64,000 nucleotides of DNA, taken from a virus. Where the stretch lies: positions 61,115 to 125,114 of the IMG/VR virus record IMGVR_UViG_3300042691_032880. The stretch is one strand, 5' to 3'. Below are positions 3,701 to 54,057 of this stretch, piece by piece (positions within the stretch are counted from its first letter, which is position 1; each line of letters begins with the position of its first letter). The position numbers and the translations under genes were made by a program. Below the pieces are notes generated by a model. It made no database searches. It had not been told where the DNA came from and saw only the letters and a list, made by a program, of their open reading frames with translations.

Positions 3701-5600
3701 GGTGACCGTACGGATATTCAAACTTTCCTGTGGCATCTCCGTATTCCCTGGTATAAATCTTTACTTCATCGTATCCCAGGAAAGGATTTGCAAAGTTGGT
3801 TTCTGGACTATGGAAACTGAAATAATCGTTTTTATATTCACTAAGTCCGCTTCCCTCATTATCAGGTGATTCACCCTGGTTCAATGCAAAAGAAGTCCTT
3901 AGGAACTTATCAATCCTCAAATCATTATAAGGATAATTCTGATACAATACCTTACGATTATCAGTATTGCTATACTGACGCATGTTATTCAACAGACCTT
4001 TTGCAATGACAGTTCTATTACCTTCGCGCGTACCCCTGAGGATTTCATATCCTATGATGTTCTCAATTGGATTACCATTATTATCAAGAGGGTGTTTTAT
4101 GTTGTCAAACCTTACACCTAACATATAAATCTTGTCTCCTCCTTGATTGTGGATGTGGGATGTACAACTATCTGGAAACTTGTGGTGACGTATAGGAATA
4201 CCGCACAGTTCACCCCATACTTCAGGTCTATTAATTGGATACTTTTCAGTTGACTCCCAATAACCCATTAAACCTTCCTTGGTTACAATACCACCATCTG
4301 GAAGAACTTGATTGAGATTGTTTGATGTTATTGTTGCCGTGTTGTAAACCTGCCAATAATAATCCTGATCAGGATACAATGTATCAGGATTACCAGGTAA
4401 TCTAAAAAGATCGGTAGGGAAAGAAGCCCTTCCTGGTATGTGGTAACTTGCGGACTTGTCACCGTCATTGTATAGCCACCTGATGAAGAAAGCATACTGC
4501 TCATCCCTCATATAGGATGTGTTGGTACCTCCTTTGTAGTAGTAATCCGAAGGATATTCGATCTCTTGCCAGTACGTTGTTATCTGATTGGCTAAAGGTT
4601 GATAGTTGAATTCAAACTTGCTGTATATCCCAGACCTCATCAAATATCCGTTCAGTGAAAACATCTTGTCACACTTTTCAAATATTGGATTGACCTGTGG
4701 TATTAGATTGAGAGGTATTACTGGTAATGCCTCCGAATAGTTATCAATGTATACAGTAGTTTGATTGGTACTGTAGTTTCCAATCTTTGTAGCGACCGTC
4801 TGTGCAGCAACCGTACTTATTATGACCAGTTCATATTCTTCAAAACGGGTATCTATCGATGATATGTCAACCTGAATTCCTCCAGCAATACCGATGTGTT
4901 CCCACATGCTCATGATATTGCTTGGAGTAAAATAGTTGGTAACCCTCTGACCGTTTATGGAATAAGCAATCGTTGCTTGGTATGAACCATTCAACAATGA
5001 ACCTGCTCCAGTAGATTTAGTCAATGTAAAACACGGTGGATCAACAAGATAACTCAACCTGGTTTGCTCACAGTCTAGACAATCACTGAATATTTGAGTG
5101 GGACAATCAGGGTTTGTTCTATCCCATGTATATTGGTAAGGGGGATTATCAAGGTTGATAGTCCTATCAGGATTCAATCCATCAGCAAAAAATACAGACC
5201 ATGTACAATCAAAATTGTATTGGGCGTATCCTGTTATCAAATGACTCCTGTCAAATCCAAGACAAGCGTCTTGTATGACTTTCTTATATCCGCAGGTCGA
5301 CTCGGTAAATATACCTATTTCAGAAAGAACGTCATTCGTAGAAAAAACAATCCAATTGTCCGAATCCCTACGAACAATTCCTATGACTGTATACGGAGCC
5401 TCGAAACAAAAGTAATTTGAAGGTTCGTTACCCACAGTTCCAGAATCCCCTTTATGAGAATTGGTAACAGCATTTATCGCATTTATCCATATACCATCGG
5501 GAATATAACTATCGTTATAGTCCTTTATCATACCCTTGGTATGAGTGATGCTCTTGGTAGAGTTAAGATCGACGCCGCTGGAAGTGGTGCTCTTTGCCAT
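780..5600 (-). CDS. Tail stabilisation/muzzle protein (P22 gp10-like, crAss-like)
   Basis: 1606 aa; N-terminal KGMIKD..NAINA, IRHHKFPD, C-terminal WTISYDPKTKMWISFHDWHP and KKFRHYGN; downstream of ring-protein genes. Confidence 0.75.
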   Translation of the reverse strand: MAKSTTSSGVDLNSTKSITHTKGMIKDYNDSYIPDGIWINAINAVTNSHKGDSGTVGNEPSNYFCFEAPYTVIGIVRRDSDNWIVFSTNDVLSEIGIFTESTCGYKKVIQDACLGFDRSHLITGYAQYNFDCTWSVFFADGLNPDRTINLDNPPYQYTWDRTNPDCPTQIFSDCLDCEQTRLSYLVDPPCFTLTKSTGAGSLLNGSYQATIAYSINGQRVTNYFTPSNIMSMWEHIGIAGGIQVDISSIDTRFEEYELVIISTVAAQTVATKIGNYSTNQTTVYIDNYSEALPVIPLNLIPQVNPIFEKCDKMFSLNGYLMRSGIYSKFEFNYQPLANQITTYWQEIEYPSDYYYKGGTNTSYMRDEQYAFFIRWLYNDGDKSASYHIPGRASFPTDLFRLPGNPDTLYPDQDYYWQVYNTATITSNNLNQVLPDGGIVTKEGLMGYWESTEKYPINRPEVWGELCGIPIRHHKFPDSCTSHIHNQGGDKIYMLGVRFDNIKHPLDNNGNPIENIIGYEILRGTREGNRTVIAKGLLNNMRQYSNTDNRKVLYQNYPYNDLRIDKFLRTSFALNQGESPDNEGSGLSEYKNDYFSFHSPETNFANPFLGYDEVKIYTREYGDATGKFEYPYGHPKHKLITNASYLIALTVGTSLAIKNGIGGRGSITKTADDVTQAVAATAIATNFGLGLPPVNANASAALLAGVGNMPLAFSNGAYGGFVGGTSTGYHSGAWTGMSFPTIVNAGGELSGLDFRTLVPGYQTKVGQAIADAAMYLLLISTIDYFAGKGTEEALRIIYALLPYKQYALQYNSHGFYSKYKKVCPDTDLGSTRRKHDNSIYIRDQVQSFDVDYVINNLYRNNYVATKIFGTFPAVSANDSSIEDQSRKRVSDTTIGLNDPVNKSITTKTSAYYVGLKVDLQNQYGQLESITQIPMNTCYFLTSSRIKNKLYNSGTMFGGDIYINRYTEKNPFMFFNTWLFDVPDGTEIDYKQYANVLYPRYWANFDKMDGSAIQTPLSWSSLTSGNLLGFITAASAYHHLDRNTSATNSFQITSAWFYLFYNGVRDFFVESEINLAFRDYGELDSQRHYDRTDFTDTSRLFRTDIIKTGNYYKYDFSLSVSKLLSNYVGFGKILPRSYDPNVAETCFTYNRSKVYYSLPQISEQARDSWRIYLPNNYKDFENTISSIKPINRTGGLILFEDAEPTSFTGVDQLQTGAGTKITIGDGGLFAQPFQSLVNADDEFEYASCQDTKSVVNTPYGTFWMSRNSGKVLWYYGGSISDIAMNGMRYWFIQHLPNVLTTQYPNFPHVENTVVGIGCQTVYDTQYEIVYFCKRDFKAKSTAVKYDEQQDYFYVNRQSGLLRIELGDPEYFEDCSWTISYDPKTKMWISFHDWHPNHVLGTNDHFYTVNGNTFWKHNDTCNSFCNFYGRNYAFEVEMPVNTGVNINTIKSVEYYLEVLNYSQDCIDPYHVLDANFDYAMVYNTEQNSGLLKLNLKPYSPSEMLNYPKITPNGIEIMFSKEENKYRFNQFWDATKDRGEFSGIQYRMFNTEQNGYRKVLNPTYIDYNKSPLERKKFRHYGNRLILGKTVSDNLKYNLKVTAVKETLSPR

Positions 5601-51146: not shown

Positions 51147-51521
51147 TCGGGAACGCATACTCTGCAACTCTCTGCATATCAGGAGAGTTGCGGAGTCATC
51201 GCGTCACCTACCTCGAGGAGACTCGAGGTGAGGTGCAAAGGACGCTCACTGCGTTCGCTGCATTTCCTACTCCACAACGACGTGGACACCAGGTGATTGT
51301 CCCCACCTTTGTCCAAGGTAATTGTCCTCGGGATAGACGGTCAAAAATATATTTCCACCATGGAAAAGGAAAAGGAAAGGACCACATTACGCTCGCTGCG
51401 CTCGCTGCATTTCCTGCTCCGCATCTTACCATTCGCACCTGCACCAAAGGAAAGGTGTAAGTTATCACGGAAGTAATTCACAATCAATTTAATATTAACA
51501 ATTTAAAAAAACCAAAACAAC

Positions 51522-51905
51522 ATGAAAGCAGTATTGATCAATCAGTACACAACAGTATCAAAGACCACAGGTAATCGCGTGGAAATGAGTGTTTACGAAA
51601 TCGTTGAAGGAACTCAACAAGAGTTGGAAGACTATTGCGATTTCGAAACAGCAAGGGGTTATTACAAAGAAACCGATGAAGGTAATCCCATATTCCAAAC
51701 CATCGGTGACCTGGGTAACACCATTGAAGTACGACTTGGTAAAAAGAAAGATGCCAATGGTAACCTGGTAGAGGCTTATCGCGGTATTGCAAGCGAAGAC
51801 TGGCGTTTGAAGAAGTCTATCGTCCGCGAACAGATCTCCGCTCCTGCTCCTAGGGTGATTGCATCACGTCCTGTACCAAAAACAGCAGGTGAACCAAAGT
51901 TTTAA
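51522..51905 (+). CDS. Hypothetical early protein, C-terminal ..GEPKF
   Basis: 127 aa; A-rich Bacteroidetes-type leader; followed by a terminator. Confidence 0.75.
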   Translation: MKAVLINQYTTVSKTTGNRVEMSVYEIVEGTQQELEDYCDFETARGYYKETDEGNPIFQTIGDLGNTIEVRLGKKKDANGNLVEAYRGIASEDWRLKKSIVREQISAPAPRVIASRPVPKTAGEPKF

Positions 51906-51924
51906 TTGAATTATGTAAGTGATT

Positions 51925-51959
51925 GAGTGTGAGGAGCTAAACAACCTCACACTCTTTTT
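51925..51959 (+). terminator. Intrinsic terminator
   Basis: GAGTGTGAGG/CCTCACACTC 10-bp stem plus T-tract. Confidence 0.8.
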
Positions 51960-52026
51960 CTACATTTATTGTTCTCTTACTTTGGAACAAAAAAGCGTGC
52001 CACTAGATAACCATTCTTGGTTGTCA

Positions 52027-52085
52027 GGACTATGATGTCTAATGGTTAGACGTATAGAGTACGGGTTCGATTCCCGTCATAGTCC
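52027..52085 (+). ncRNA. tRNA-like RNA lacking an anticodon arm
   Basis: GGACTATG/CATAGTCC acceptor, GTCT-AATGGTT-AGAC D arm, ACGGG-TTCGATT-CCCGT T arm, only 9 nt between D and T arms. Confidence 0.7.
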
Positions 52086-52325
52086 CTTATTAATTGTTCA
52101 TAGTAGTCACCCGAAATCCATGGGGACAGTTTACAGCCGACCTTGAGTAAGTCGGTCACGTTTACATAAACTACCAACTCATATACTATTTGCTGGGATC
52201 CAGTCCCTGCAAACACAAGGGTCGCAACCTTGGGGGTAAAGCGAGGAGCCGTTTGGATGACAACATTGTTTAGCAATGATAACTCCATATGGATAAAACT
52301 CCTCGCTCAACCTTTGATGATGACT

Positions 52326-52574
52326 ATGAATAACTCTGAATACCTAGAGTTTGTATTGGAGTCTAACTCCAATAAGAAACTCGACGCTCTTTGTGATGCG
52401 ATTATCCGCTGCATTAAAAGTACTGGTGGCGTTAAAAGTGGTCCCATTCCTTTTAAGAACAAGAGGATAATCTATTGCTATGGACCTACTGCTCGTACCA
52501 TTGACTCCATTATGGCTCTTCGTCAACCCGCCAAAGTCAAGGTAGAAGTTAATATCCTGGAGCGTAAATCCTAA
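52326..52574 (+). CDS. rpsJ: Ribosomal protein uS10/NusE homologue lacking the ribosome-binding loop
   Basis: 82 aa (alternative ATGs 52317/52320); LD..CDAIIRCIKSTGGVKSGPIPF-KNKRII..YGPTARTIDSIMAL..PAKVKVEV aligns to the S10 core. Confidence 0.75.
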   Translation: MNNSEYLEFVLESNSNKKLDALCDAIIRCIKSTGGVKSGPIPFKNKRIIYCYGPTARTIDSIMALRQPAKVKVEVNILERKS

Positions 52575-52834
52575 TGAAAAGGTCAGTCGGTGCTGAAATG
52601 ACTGTGAAGCATCACTTTAACTTTACAACCCAACAAACAAGAAGAATAGAGTAACTCTGAAGCTGTCCAATTAGTAAGAGGTATGGTAAGTCTTCTATCA
52701 AAGGAAATATTGCATTAAAGCCTTTGGTATAATTATCAATTCAGTAGTTGATGCGACAACTAGATTGGATATAGTTCAGGAGATAGAAAAAAGCCTGAAT
52801 TTTCATTTGACTAACCCCTTAAACCCCTTATAAG

Positions 52835-53278: not shown

Positions 53279-53285
53279 TCCCTAA

Positions 53286-53444
53286 TGCACTTGGTTGTAA
53301 TCACACAGAGCGTCTCCTCACTACCCATAGGTTATGGGTGCTGCATAAAAAGCAGGTAGTAAAGTGGGTAATGCCACAGGATGTCCTGATAGGTAAGATG
53401 TGATGAATATTGATCTTGAGTACAATCAATAACAACTAAGCGCA
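53286..53444 (+). ncRNA. Putative structured RNA 1 (TGCACT..GTTGTAAT terminal stem)
   Basis: 53286-53301 pairs with 53429-53444 (14/16); several internal hairpins; no ORF. Confidence 0.5.
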
Positions 53445-53452
53445 TTTCATTT

Positions 53453-53564
53453 GACCAAGGTGGTACTTCTCTAACGACAGGTACCAGTATGGATAACCAG
53501 GATAGCACGTCTGCCACTGTATAGCTATTCCTAATAAGAGGTTCGAGTCCTCCCTTGGTCACCA
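53453..53564 (+). ncRNA. 112-nt tRNA-like RNA with an expanded D/anticodon region and encoded CCA
   Basis: GACCAAG/CTTGGTC 7-bp acceptor, discriminator A, CCA; GAGG-TTCGAGT-CCTC T arm. Confidence 0.65.
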
Positions 53565-53571
53565 ATCCCAA

Positions 53572-53764
53572 TGCACTAACTCACCTCGCAAGGGTGAGCA
53601 GTTGTAATAACTAGAAAACTTTATAGAGTATAAGCGGGTAGACAAATCTATGCTACGCAATTAGCTACCACCTAAACTGCAGTATATTGCAAGATGCAGG
53701 TAATGGACACTGAGGTTGCTCTCGGGGATTTTGTCCTATAAAGATGTTATTACAACTGAGTGCA
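53572..53764 (+). ncRNA. Putative structured RNA 2 (same terminal stem)
   Basis: TGCACT[hairpin]CAGTTGTAATAAC pairs with GTTATTACAACTGAGTGCA; inner CTTTATAG/CTATAAAG closes a multibranch domain. Confidence 0.6.
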
Positions 53765-54057
53765 AAGGGTAATGAAACGTTCTAGGATTGTAACCTGGAT
53801 AGTCCGCCACCAGATGATAAGAAGCGAGGTCACTCTCGTAGGGGTATTTTGCCATTAGATTAAATGAGCCAGGATTGATGTTCCTGCACATCAGTGATCA
53901 GAGGCCTTTCGAGGCATAGTATCCAGTATGAACACATCGCGCTGATACACAAGGTCGTAGTTGAGATAAGGACAGGATGGTAATATCGTATGATGCTCCT
54001 GTTACTACGACCGAGTGTATTGGTATTGCATTGACCACAACTTAAAACCCTTTATAA

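Follow-up and report, generated by a model that had tools for sequence, protein, structure and literature searches.

Bacterial and phage tRNA genes are usually assumed to encode cloverleaf decoders, and the gene finders rest on that assumption. However, a tRNA shape within a longer transcript that does not decode is known from mascRNA (MALAT1), the miRNA-linked tRNA-like RNAs of murine gammaherpesvirus 68 and mitochondrial punctuation, where excision by RNase P and RNase Z sets the ends of the neighboring RNAs, CCA is added afterwards, and an anticodon-like stem is retained. For RNase P, RNase Z and the CCA-adding enzyme, the acceptor/T minihelix and the elbow suffice, and the same parts are also read by some synthetases. 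The tRNA-like domain of tmRNA and the module of YrlA (a bacterial Y RNA) mimic the acceptor and T arm, include an analog of the D loop and have no anticodon arm at the usual place; tmRNA is further characterized by a G3:U70 pair, and by a tag reading frame and pseudoknots between its two halves, and YrlA ends in a Ro-binding helix, not in an acceptor stem. In tRNA-Sec (RF01852) and in the 8/4 and 9/3 allo-tRNAs, the acceptor and T stems form an extended helix, of 13 bp in tRNA-Sec. According to a review, encoded G-1 and C73 are the identity elements of tRNA-His (PMC9976931). Within the portion of the literature covered by our search, there is no paper on a phage tRNA-like RNA devoid of the anticodon arm.

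The window analyzed here, 64,000 nt in length, is half of the complete 125-kb genome of a freshwater phage and contains, upstream of a gene for an S10-like protein, a 59-nt element shaped like the upper half and elbow of a tRNA. The features of the region, all on the plus strand, are as follows (X9 and X18 are metagenome runs; L065 is the closest related phage found).

51925–51959, plus strand: terminator-like hairpin GAGTGTGAGG..CCTCACACTC followed by a T run, closing the upstream gene (51522–51905)
51987–52011, plus strand: block acaaaaaagcgtgccactagataac, common to L065 (compared by eye)
52009–52020, plus strand: strain-variable joint; these 12 nt are swapped for 125 other letters in X9, and both ends of the joint coincide with contig breaks in X18
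52027–52085, plus strand: tRNA-like element, an acceptor/T minihelix and a D arm without an anticodon arm (sequence, fold z, RF00005, sub-threshold tRNA-Sec match, runs X9 and X18)
52027–52034, plus strand: acceptor 5' strand GGACTATG (G-1 and positions 1–7), forming eight Watson-Crick pairs, without a mismatch, with 52078–52085
52037–52051, plus strand: D arm GTCT/AATGGTT/AGAC, a 4-bp stem with GG in a 7-nt loop
52052–52060, plus strand: 9-nt linker GTATAGAGT, standing where a tRNA has position 26, the anticodon arm and the variable loop
52061–52077, plus strand: T arm ACGGG/TTCGATT/CCCGT with a 5-bp stem
52078–52085, plus strand: acceptor 3' strand CATAGTCC (positions 66–72 and C73), followed by CTT
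52086–52189, plus strand: spacer, hypervariable at 52086–52120 in X18
52190–52307, plus strand: leader of the S10-like gene, conserved and structured (of 19 pairs predicted for 4 sequences, 9 show compensatory changes)
52308–52574, plus strand: S10-like gene, 88 aa (Pfam PF00338, E 2.3e-6, covering only profile positions 2–44 of 98)

The first-pass annotation had described the element as a tRNA with an 8-bp acceptor stem, a D arm with the GG dinucleotide, a TTCGATT T arm, a 9-nt linker, and neither an anticodon arm nor an encoded CCA, and had placed an S10 gene downstream; each of these details is borne out by the sequence and by folding, and the S10-like gene is where it was expected. All 17 pairs are Watson-Crick, and CCA is not encoded because CTT comes directly after the acceptor stem. 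The predicted minimum free energy is -22.6 kcal/mol, compared with -12.78 +/- 2.42 kcal/mol in 200 shuffles (z = -4.06), none of which is as stable, and the element folds as a separate domain also inside a 306-nt context. In the minimum free energy structure, an alternative to the open D loop appears: the D hairpin grows to 8 bp and is capped by a UGG triloop. The helix can equally be split 9/4, as GGACTATGA/TCATAGTCC and CGGG/CCCG, which is the arrangement used in the Rfam tRNA-Sec alignment. The AT at 52035–52036, between the acceptor and the D arm, makes position 8 an A and position 9 a U.

When compared with decoding tRNAs, the element has the acceptor, the D arm with G18G19 and the T-Psi-C type T loop, but no anticodon arm (a 5-bp stem with a 7-nt loop carrying U33 and a purine at 37), since GTATAGAGT alone stands between the D and T arms, and thus it is unable to decode. 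The tertiary core (8–14, 26–44) is not canonical either: A8 stands where U8 is near-universal, and position 26 has no anticodon-stem neighbor. The alternative reading, in which the hairpin would be the anticodon arm of a D-armless tRNA, is rejected: in the loop, AAUGGUU, U33 is replaced by A and the purine at 37 by U. Relative to elongator tRNAs (RF00005) and bacterial tRNA-His in particular, the element shares the acceptor, the D-arm GG, the TTCGATT T arm and the G-1:C73 pair that extends the acceptor to 8 bp, but has 9 nt where about 23 are expected, A8 for U8, and no GUG anticodon. The first-pass annotation allowed for reading the extra pair as the tRNA-His identity element; the pair is present, but it is the only basis for a His identity, and the D loop and T arm are Leu-like (see below), so that this identity is speculative.

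The resemblance to the other known systems is likewise partial. With tRNA-Sec, the element shares the 13-bp acceptor/T helix (8/5 or 9/4), but its D arm consists of a 4-bp stem and 7-nt loop compared with 6 bp and 4 nt in tRNA-Sec, there is neither a long variable arm nor an anticodon arm with UCA, and in the alignment to the model the D stem, anticodon arm and variable arm are deleted or mispaired; at 27.4 bits (E 0.003), this top sub-threshold Rfam match is well below the cut-off of 47. Pair 3:70 is C:G, no tmRNA is called by ARAGORN in the window, and the permuted-tmRNA model matches the T arm alone (12.8 bits). The eukaryotic and organellar RNAs excised from longer transcripts keep an anticodon-like stem, whereas the element belongs to a bacteriophage and has no such stem.

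Default ARAGORN reports no tRNA in the window or in the whole genome, and Rfam cmscan of the window at gathering thresholds returns no match. In relaxed ARAGORN runs, the element is among 74 calls, mostly spurious. By contrast, a whole-genome Infernal search assigns it 39.2 bits with RF00005, above the cut-off of 29, in disagreement with the cmscan of the window. A scan of the fetched loci (described below) and the whole phage genome for the shape itself (T loop, 5-bp T stem, 7-bp acceptor and D arm with GG) gave 79 matches, 58 of these with a D arm; in shuffled copies, the corresponding counts were 1 and 0. No match is shorter than the element, whose sequence occurs once in the window.

The phage, which has no canonical tRNA, encodes two other tRNA-like RNAs. 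A 90-nt tRNA-framed RNA (G000:3783-3872; RF00005, 47 bits) starts 8 nt past a stop codon and ends about 16 nt ahead of the next ATG, a punctuation-like position, and a 112-nt tRNA-like RNA lies at 53453–53564, with an 84.6% identical copy in L065 that shows two compensatory acceptor changes. No CCA-adding enzyme, HisRS or Thg1 is encoded by the phage. A changed genetic code was considered and rejected, given that reading TAG, TGA or TAA through yields no telling extension of the largest frames; TAG terminates 14 of the 131 long frames.

Upstream of the element, the hairpin at 51925–51959 was missed by the terminator scan because its loop is 10 nt long; a block homologous to this region stands before an 89-aa ORF in L065. 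The block at 51987–52011 might be a promoter or the start of a leader; it has no second occurrence in the genome that would make it a repeated promoter motif. Downstream, the terminator scan is negative for the interval that separates the element from the S10-like gene, and the spacer contains a second CATAGTAGTCACC at 52099–52111 together with what looks, by eye, like a degenerate copy of the stem of the "handle" RNA. The "handle" RNA itself is present in more than 120 viral contigs. Among 5.8 billion proteins, the S10-like protein has only two clusters, P0001 (100% identity) and P0002 (89%), the latter on an 804-bp contig. In the main text of PMC6375957, S10 appears only inside a DOI.

Four metagenome runs cover the region, and two of them span the entire element (X11 does not reach it, and X2 covers it from 52055 onward only). 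None of the listed runs that contain the region is recorded as an RNA run. The X9 contig is identical over 52021–52127. The X18 contig (52021–52650) has a single difference within the 59 nt, 52075 C>T, which changes G63:C75 to G.U and so preserves the stem on the plus strand only, whereas the flanks in this run show five substitutions and three deletions in the 35 nt 3' of the element and seven listed substitutions at 51959–51978. With two contigs, one substitution and a divergence of only ~1% outside the two spacers, this conservation is weak evidence. Taken together with the recurrence of the architecture in related phages, it gives modest support to the proposal of the first-pass annotation that the perfect stems reflect selection rather than decay.

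Searches for relatives of the element itself were largely negative. In L065, the whole module is missing, and in three related phages the S10-like gene is preceded by the same leader but not by such an element, which indicates that it is young or dispensable and not obligatory to the S10 unit. No full-length parent tRNA was found, nor was a relative with a complete tRNA at this locus, the situation that would have marked the element as a recent deletion product; with the module missing from L065, this comparison is incomplete. Exact and IUPAC scans with the T arm plus the acceptor 3' strand gave no match in viral or genome contigs, and a pattern with loops and linker fixed and stems free gave none in viral contigs; the D-arm 17-mer matches viral contigs once, in an unrelated protein-coding stretch of L128 where there is no tRNA. 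Blastn of 51500–52600 against the GenBank phage collection returned no match. A covariance model built from the element as the single sequence (R1) was run over the full records of 50 of 121 loci, with a filter that is possibly insensitive, and hit one record, an ordinary tRNA-Lys(UUU) in G033; with filters off, the best E-value in L065, L016, L008, L023, L064, L002 and L046 was 0.17, with no tRNA shape except a lone T arm. Since these searches found no diverged homolog, there is no covariation for the element itself. Over L124–L127, the sole match of R1 is a 75-nt stretch around the framed RNA of L125, a member of the family considered next.

Phages related to this one carry dozens of tRNA-framed RNAs with D and T arms of the tRNA-Leu type and short or hypervariable middles. 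The Leu-type frame consists of an AGTCAGG acceptor, the D arm GGCGGAAT(T)GGTAGACGC and the T arm ACAGGTTCGAATCCTGT around a variable middle. In 120 loci collected on the basis of an unrelated motif, 19 frames with variable middles are present, spread over 14 of the loci. ARAGORN calls three of these frames, the tally listing 17 as uncalled, which is one too many; the mean pairwise identity is 0.94 in the 3' frame vs. 0.49 in the middles. A scan for short middles produced 28 rows, 21 with a paired 7-bp acceptor and a total length of 69–79 nt; four rows are not called by ARAGORN and three are called "tRNA-???". In the acceptor stems of the family, 7 of 7 pairs are changed on both sides among 18 sequences, which were picked for a paired acceptor so that the 100% pairing holds by construction; left out were the 7 of the 28 rows without a 7-bp acceptor, in one case because the locus is cut. 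In L043 and L088, the framed RNA starts 8–10 nt past the 3' end of another conserved RNA. In the part of the literature reached by our search, there is no description of this family. Of six genome-bin contigs with related frames, three are labeled Flavobacterium or Chitinophagaceae, a weak indication that the host is a member of freshwater Bacteroidota.

The architecture of these RNAs (acceptor, D arm, non-anticodon middle, T arm) is that of the element, which is the shortest example. The short-middle forms of 69–76 nt have an unstructured linker between the D and T arms, as in the element; the D arm AATGGTTAGACG matches AATGG(T)TAGACG of the Leu-type frames, and the motifs AATGGT(T)AGACG and TAC(G/A)GGTTCGATTCC(C/T)GTC are common to both. 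The T arms agree at 15 of 17 positions by our own count, with one compensated T-stem pair (ACGGG/CCCGT in the element, ACAGG/CCTGT in the frames), and the 73-nt elements of L125 and L137 contain TTAAGAGAT, to which the linker GTATAGAGT is similar. All belong to the same freshwater phage group, and one copy is present in the element's own genome. The differences are that the element has an acceptor of 8 pairs with another sequence and C73 (7 pairs and A73 in the frames), a 4-bp D stem in a shifted register (a 3-bp type-II GCG/CGC stem in the frames) and a linker of 9 nt, compared with 20 nt or more. In architecture, and probably in descent as well, the element ranks as the smallest of these phage-specific tRNA-framed RNAs.

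Considering its sequence and position, we tentatively propose that the element is a maintained, non-decoding tRNA mimic that heads the S10-like transcript and is excised by the RNase P and RNase Z of the host. It has retained the acceptor/T-arm minihelix and its D-arm elbow, and only the part needed on the ribosome would have been lost. Under this scenario, transcription would begin past the terminator of the upstream gene, such that the long 5' region of the S10-like transcript has the element as its first domain; host RNase P would cleave at the 5' end of the element, RNase Z or another nuclease would cleave past C73, and the host would then add CCA, setting free a stable RNA of ~60 nt. The enzymes involved must be those of the host because the phage lacks a CCA-adding enzyme. 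Cleavage would also fix the 5' end of the downstream RNA, i.e., act as punctuation. Among the roles suggested by the first-pass annotation, a processing signal for the S10 transcript appears to fit the context best, albeit not as an obligatory one, given the leaders of the three related phages; that default ARAGORN and cmscan at gathering thresholds do not recognize the element speaks against the proposal, as does its non-canonical tertiary core. The conservation of the Leu-type frame across distant phages exceeds the requirements of generic RNase P processing, which points to an additional reader.

It is somewhat unlikely that the element is instead a young pseudogene, that is, a functionless remnant, not yet decayed, of a phage tRNA or tRNA-framed RNA whose middle was removed by a single deletion. 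The restriction of the element, in our searches, to one phage species and its strains is compatible with such an origin, as are the apparent single gap of ~17 nt when it is aligned to the 73-nt RNAs of L125 and L137, the insertion/deletion hot spot around it, and the ordinary tRNAs in equivalent RNA-rich regions of related phages. Nevertheless, all 17 pairs are intact, the deletion would have required a clean 26-to-44 junction, and the acceptor is unlike that of the Leu-type frame at most positions and yet fully paired, so that several compensated changes would have had to follow any split. Furthermore, the element is a conserved island between two hypervariable spacers where the sole change preserves pairing, and the phage keeps two further non-canonical tRNA-like RNAs and no ordinary tRNA.

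We also consider it unlikely that the released RNA is a trans-acting decoy or sponge that would be charged or bound by HisRS via G-1:C73, or would absorb a host or defense factor reading the acceptor or the elbow. The related framed RNAs are Leu-type frames with A73, LeuRS is not known to read the anticodon, and the far stronger conservation of frames than of middles is expected with a sequence-specific reader. The G-1:C73 pair closes a perfect 8-bp acceptor that makes a 13-bp minihelix with the T stem, and HisRS efficiently aminoacylates 13-bp minihelices and 8-bp microhelices with this pair, although bacterial HisRS uses the anticodon as well in vivo, as stated in the review (PMC9976931). 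However, an extra flanking pair that is exactly G:C is expected by chance in about 1 of 16 cases, the D and T arms are of the Leu rather than the His type, and the two tRNA-His genes in the fetched loci show no particular similarity to the element. No partner protein was found, the phage encodes none of the three enzymes mentioned above, and an RNA without an anticodon loop could not bait anticodon nucleases.

In a broader version, which we regard as quite improbable, this phage group would encode a class of non-decoding, chargeable tRNA mimics whose frames belong to synthetases with little or no need for the anticodon, mostly Leu-type with A73 and here His-type with G-1:C73, with the anticodon arm deleted or replaced by freely evolving inserts. 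The 59-nt RNA would then be the minimal form, aminoacylated and active outside the ribosome, where it would sequester a synthetase or EF-Tu, donate its amino acid or serve as bait for a host defense that senses tRNA ends, in addition to punctuating the transcript.

Finally, a conserved DNA feature (a junction for recombination or module exchange) is very unlikely, as is a palindrome-rich stretch that arose by chance or a segment of a minus-strand gene: the variable segment in X9 and X18 does stop exactly 6 nt before the element starts, swapped middles lie between the Leu-type frames in a cassette-like manner, and a minus-strand ORF of 80 aa (52046–52288) overlaps the element, but the TTCGATT T loop, D-loop GG and nested stems are specific tRNA features with 0 chance matches in the shuffled control, the single variant is G.U-compatible on the plus strand only, the minus-strand ORF has five insertions or deletions in X18 (52088, 52096, 52117, 52252 and 52287), and the acceptor stems of the family, in the rows picked for pairing, covary.

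If processed as proposed in our preferred reading, the element would be a natural counterpart in bacterial viruses of the tRNA-guided RNA processing seen in organelles, herpesvirus miRNA units and synthetic tRNA-spacer arrays, and a minimal natural substrate that defines what the host tRNA enzymes need. If charged, it would represent phage use of aminoacyl-RNA chemistry outside translation. Gene finders overlook the element, and many of the related framed RNAs are either overlooked or wrongly assigned. Together with these RNAs, the "handle" RNA and the structured leader of the S10-like gene, it is part of a larger RNA-rich region, apparently not described before, that is carried by freshwater phages of a widespread group, and it is within this region that the 59-nt element is best understood.

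The virus record to which the window belongs is complete (125,114 bp, with direct terminal repeats; the window represents bases 61115-125114) and carries a tRNA-like element with acceptor, D and T arms, which reads, segment by segment:

52027-52085, plus strand: the 59-nt element, GGACTATG, AT, GTCT AATGGTT AGAC, GTATAGAGT, ACGGG TTCGATT CCCGT, CATAGTCC

The acceptor stem is perfect over 8 bp, the D arm consists of 4 bp and a 7-nt loop containing GG, and a 9-nt linker leads to a T arm of 5 bp with a textbook T loop; the 17-nt anticodon arm is wholly missing from its expected place and, given that CTT directly follows the element, CCA is not encoded. These structural details, all described in the first-pass annotation, proved correct on re-reading of the sequence; the acceptor and T helices can equally be read as 9/4. 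The fold (-22.6 kcal/mol, z = -4.06) is equaled by none of 200 shuffles and remains an independent domain when folded with 306 nt of context. Gene finders disagree on the element: with default settings, ARAGORN leaves the whole phage genome without a tRNA call and cmscan at gathering thresholds makes no call in the window (the best sub-threshold match of the element is tRNA-Sec, 27.4 bits, cut-off 47), whereas in a whole-genome Infernal search the Rfam tRNA model scores 39.2 bits at the element, above the 29-bit cut-off. A functional tRNA, tRNA-Sec or tmRNA was rejected by membership tests. A scan for shape (T loop, 5-bp T stem, 7-bp acceptor, D arm with GG) across the collected loci and the whole phage genome yielded 58 D-arm matches vs 0 in shuffled copies, the element being the shortest match. 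The acceptor 3' strand recurs in imperfect form (CATAGTAGTCACC) at 52099-52111, 14 nt past the element. This second copy is unchanged in a contig from the public metagenome run X18 though the sequence on either side varies, and could be the scar of a duplication or offer an alternative partner for pairing.

The element lies between a terminator-like hairpin and a gene for an S10-like protein:

51522-51905: upstream gene, 127 aa
51925-51959: terminator-like hairpin and T run after the 127-aa gene, read from the sequence
52190-52307: conserved, structured S10 leader (~120 nt), also in the viral contigs L002:3880-4005, L125:700-815 and L127:4615-4738
52308-52574, plus strand: S10-like gene, 88 aa, Pfam PF00338 (Ribosomal_S10), E 2.3e-6

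The element starts ~65 nt past the hairpin. The block aaaaaagcgtgccactagataac, which makes up part of the stretch between the two and does not recur elsewhere in the phage genome, is also present in L065, the closest relative found, after a similar hairpin and ahead of an 89-aa ORF; because block and hairpin are shared, this interval may hold a promoter or leader start. Downstream of the element, a terminator scan detected no terminator-like site, and ~220 nt of structured RNA extend to the S10-like gene. The S10 leader has 19 predicted pairs, 9 with compensatory changes among the four sequences, and contains, besides the hairpin CARGGGYCRYRACCYTGGGG, a long stem that shows compensatory changes; past the stop codon of the gene comes another conserved motif, AAAAGGTCAGT.GGTGCTGAAATRACTGTGAAGCA. 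The encoded protein, which matches PF00338 only over the N-terminal 44 of 98 profile positions and falls into just 2 clusters among 5.8 billion proteins, may be a loop-less uS10/NusE-like factor; S10 is not named among virus-encoded ribosomal proteins in the main text of PMC6375957. The element is not a fixed component of the S10 unit because it is absent upstream of the leader in all three other phages (0/3).

An IMG/VR scan for the handle, a motif of a neighbouring RNA (see below), provided 120 loci, among the matches listed, in which we identified RNAs with tRNA-Leu-type frames around variable middles, along with two undersized tRNA-like RNAs:

5' frame: AGTCAGG-TG-GCGGAAT(T)GGTAGACGC
3' frame: ACAGGTTCGAATCCTGT-CCTGACT-A
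Viral contig loci with framed RNAs, all searches combined: L005, L025, L029, L031, L043, L052, L054, L060, L067, L074, L084, L086, L088, L089, L102, L113, L125, L127, L129-L161; in the window's own genome, G000:C1:3783-3872
L046:1693-1739, minus strand: 47 nt, acceptor AGCGGAA/TTCCGCT, small D-like hairpin, 4-bp T arm
L011:682-749, plus strand: 68 nt, labelled tRNA-??? by ARAGORN

The framed RNAs (69-161 nt in total, up to 5 copies per locus, in L089) combine conserved acceptor, D and T arms with hypervariable middles. In the long-middle set (19 RNAs spread over 14 of the 120 loci, among the matches listed; 81-161 nt in total), the middles share no sequence relationship; 3 of the 19 are called by ARAGORN, and in an Rfam alignment several framed RNAs appear as tRNAs whose anticodon loops are swollen (9-32 nt) and which carry long inserts. 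The scan for short middles returned 28 rows, 21 of which have a paired 7-bp acceptor and a total of 69-79 nt, the paired acceptor being absent in 7; the forms in L139, L144, L157 and L136, whose 20-21-nt middles offer no plausible anticodon arm, are uncalled by ARAGORN, and other short forms are assigned doubtful anticodons. Both-sided changes affect all 7 acceptor pairs in 18 short forms, with every cell paired, but these were selected for a paired acceptor, so that only the acceptor variety on constant D/T arms is informative. Genuine phage tRNA-Leu(UAA) genes, such as that in L158, have the same frames. Because only 6 contigs, all metagenome bins, contain the 5'-frame 25-mer in a set of ~185,000 prokaryote species genomes, the frames are a phage property and were not copied from a common host tRNA.

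The element and the framed RNAs share a common architecture. They also have in common AATGGT(T)AGACG and TAC(G/A)GGTTCGATTCC(C/T)GTC, and the linker of the element is similar to that of 73-nt elements in L125 and L137. Common descent is likely, and only likely because the D/T-arm sequences match but the acceptor, discriminator and D-stem register differ.

Two further kinds of RNA are found nearby:

53285-53440 and 53590-53770: handle RNA, also at L002:3380-3540 and 3770-3880 and in at least 120 IMG/VR contigs (L003-L122)
53453-53564, plus strand: 112-nt tRNA-like RNA ending in ACCA; counterpart at L065:8594-8693, minus strand

The handle consists of a small hairpin (..CAAGG.. loop), CAGTTGTAAT, a variable insert and ATTACAACTGAGTGCAGAGGG, its stem halves lying ~48-470 nt apart; for most of the 127 matches listed, the 5' partner is found upstream. 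It has no Rfam match and often adjoins tRNAs or tRNA-framed RNAs; we take its terminal GUUGUAAU...AUUACAAC pairing to be reminiscent of CRISPR repeat hairpins. The 112-nt RNA is 84.6% identical to its L065 counterpart; two acceptor changes are compensatory (GACCAAG/CTTGGTC vs GACTGAG/CTCAGTC), and the first hairpin, which covaries, has a conserved loop, CUCUAACGAC, containing U-CUA-A, and is followed 3' by a D-loop-like AGTATGGATAA. This RNA may be an amber-reading tRNA; the phage genome does not appear TAG-recoded. Among the collected phage contigs, ARAGORN reports suppressor-type tRNAs at L018:1745-1822 (minus strand, anticodon UUA, reading UAA) and L036:11829-11903 (plus strand, anticodon CUA, reading UAG), and a tmRNA (L005:5468-5866, minus strand; RF00023, 63.1 bits, cut-off 47) has a tRNA-Leu(UAA) on one side and a tRNA-framed RNA on the other.

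We tentatively propose, at slightly less than an even chance, that the element is a punctuation or processing module cut by host RNase P and RNase Z. The parts it keeps, namely the acceptor/T minihelix together with the D/T elbow, are those read by end-processing enzymes, and the part it lost is needed by the ribosome only. In the tRNA L-shape, positions 26 and 44 are adjacent, which makes it sterically natural for 26 to be joined to the variable loop. Given that no gene for a CCA-adding enzyme, HisRS or Thg1 is present in the phage genome, any processing would be performed by the host, whose RNase P and RNase Z would excise the tRNA shape, setting the ends of neighbouring RNAs and leaving a stable small RNA. 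Three observations suggest this role. The framed RNA of the window's own genome (3783-3872, 90 nt, RF00005 47 bits) is tightly fitted between two ORFs, starting 8 nt past a stop codon and leaving ~16 nt to the next start codon; framed RNAs are located directly 3' of handles in L043 and L088; and in L076, ~20 nt past the handle motif at 2710, a hammerhead-like CTGATGAG / CTGATGAGTCC is discernible by eye, CTGATGAGTCC being what we take to be the conserved hammerhead ribozyme core. An Rfam gathering search of L076 returned no hammerhead.

The element is narrowly distributed. Pattern scans identified no diverged homologue: the T arm plus acceptor gave 0 matches in IMG/VR and in one genome per prokaryote species, the loops plus linker 0 in IMG/VR, and the D arm a single IMG/VR match, by chance. 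L065, a contig of 124 kb with a neighbouring phosphoesterase that is 84% identical at the protein level, is alignable on both sides of the region but has unrelated DNA from the phosphoesterase gene to the 147-aa gene, with neither the 59-nt element nor the S10-like gene. A full tRNA here in close relatives, which by the first-pass annotation would refute its reading, is thus not seen in L065. Public data from 18 studies include 20 runs, most of them labelled as freshwater, lake or estuary metagenomes, that contain at least part of the region, and contigs from 4 of the 20 were compared. The whole element is covered in X9, with 0 differences, and in X18, with one, 52075 C>T, which converts the T-stem pair G63:C75 to G.U and keeps the stem on the plus strand only. 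In X18, the 35 nt directly 3' of the element have 5 substitutions and 3 deletions and the 20 nt at 51959-51978 have 7 listed substitutions, compared with 4 substitutions and 2 indels in the remaining 530 nt of leader and gene. In X9, 52009-52020 (12 nt) is swapped for 125 other letters and the X18 contigs break at the same two places; therefore, a variable segment ends 6 nt upstream of the element. The element is a constant island flanked by two hypervariable spacers, a pattern that, on the basis of two contigs and one substitution, is consistent with constraint. The main sceptical rival, under which the element is a young, functionless deletion product, fits the narrow distribution and accords less well with 17 pairs that are all perfect, with an acceptor that is diverged yet paired throughout, and with the strain comparison; we regard it as unlikely.

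The processing role leaves the strong sequence conservation of the Leu-type frames across distant phages unexplained. Because this conservation suggests a sequence-specific reader, action of the element RNA in trans remains a candidate, albeit quite an unlikely one. Bacterial tRNA-His is identified chiefly by an 8-bp acceptor with G-1:C73, such as the element has. An account of HisRS charging 13-bp minihelices that carry G-1:C73 appears in PMC9976931. Against a His-type reading, a single extra G:C pair could arise by chance and the arms of the element look Leu-type. That the element acts at the level of DNA, or is a chance match, is very improbable.

As a processing module, the element could be likened to the tRNA-shaped processing modules of eukaryotic nuclei, a herpesvirus and mitochondria, and also to the minihelix substrates of enzymology. 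No description of a phage RNA of this design, or of the framed family, was found in the literature searched (open-access papers and bioRxiv). The main interest of the element lies in the wider RNA family around it.
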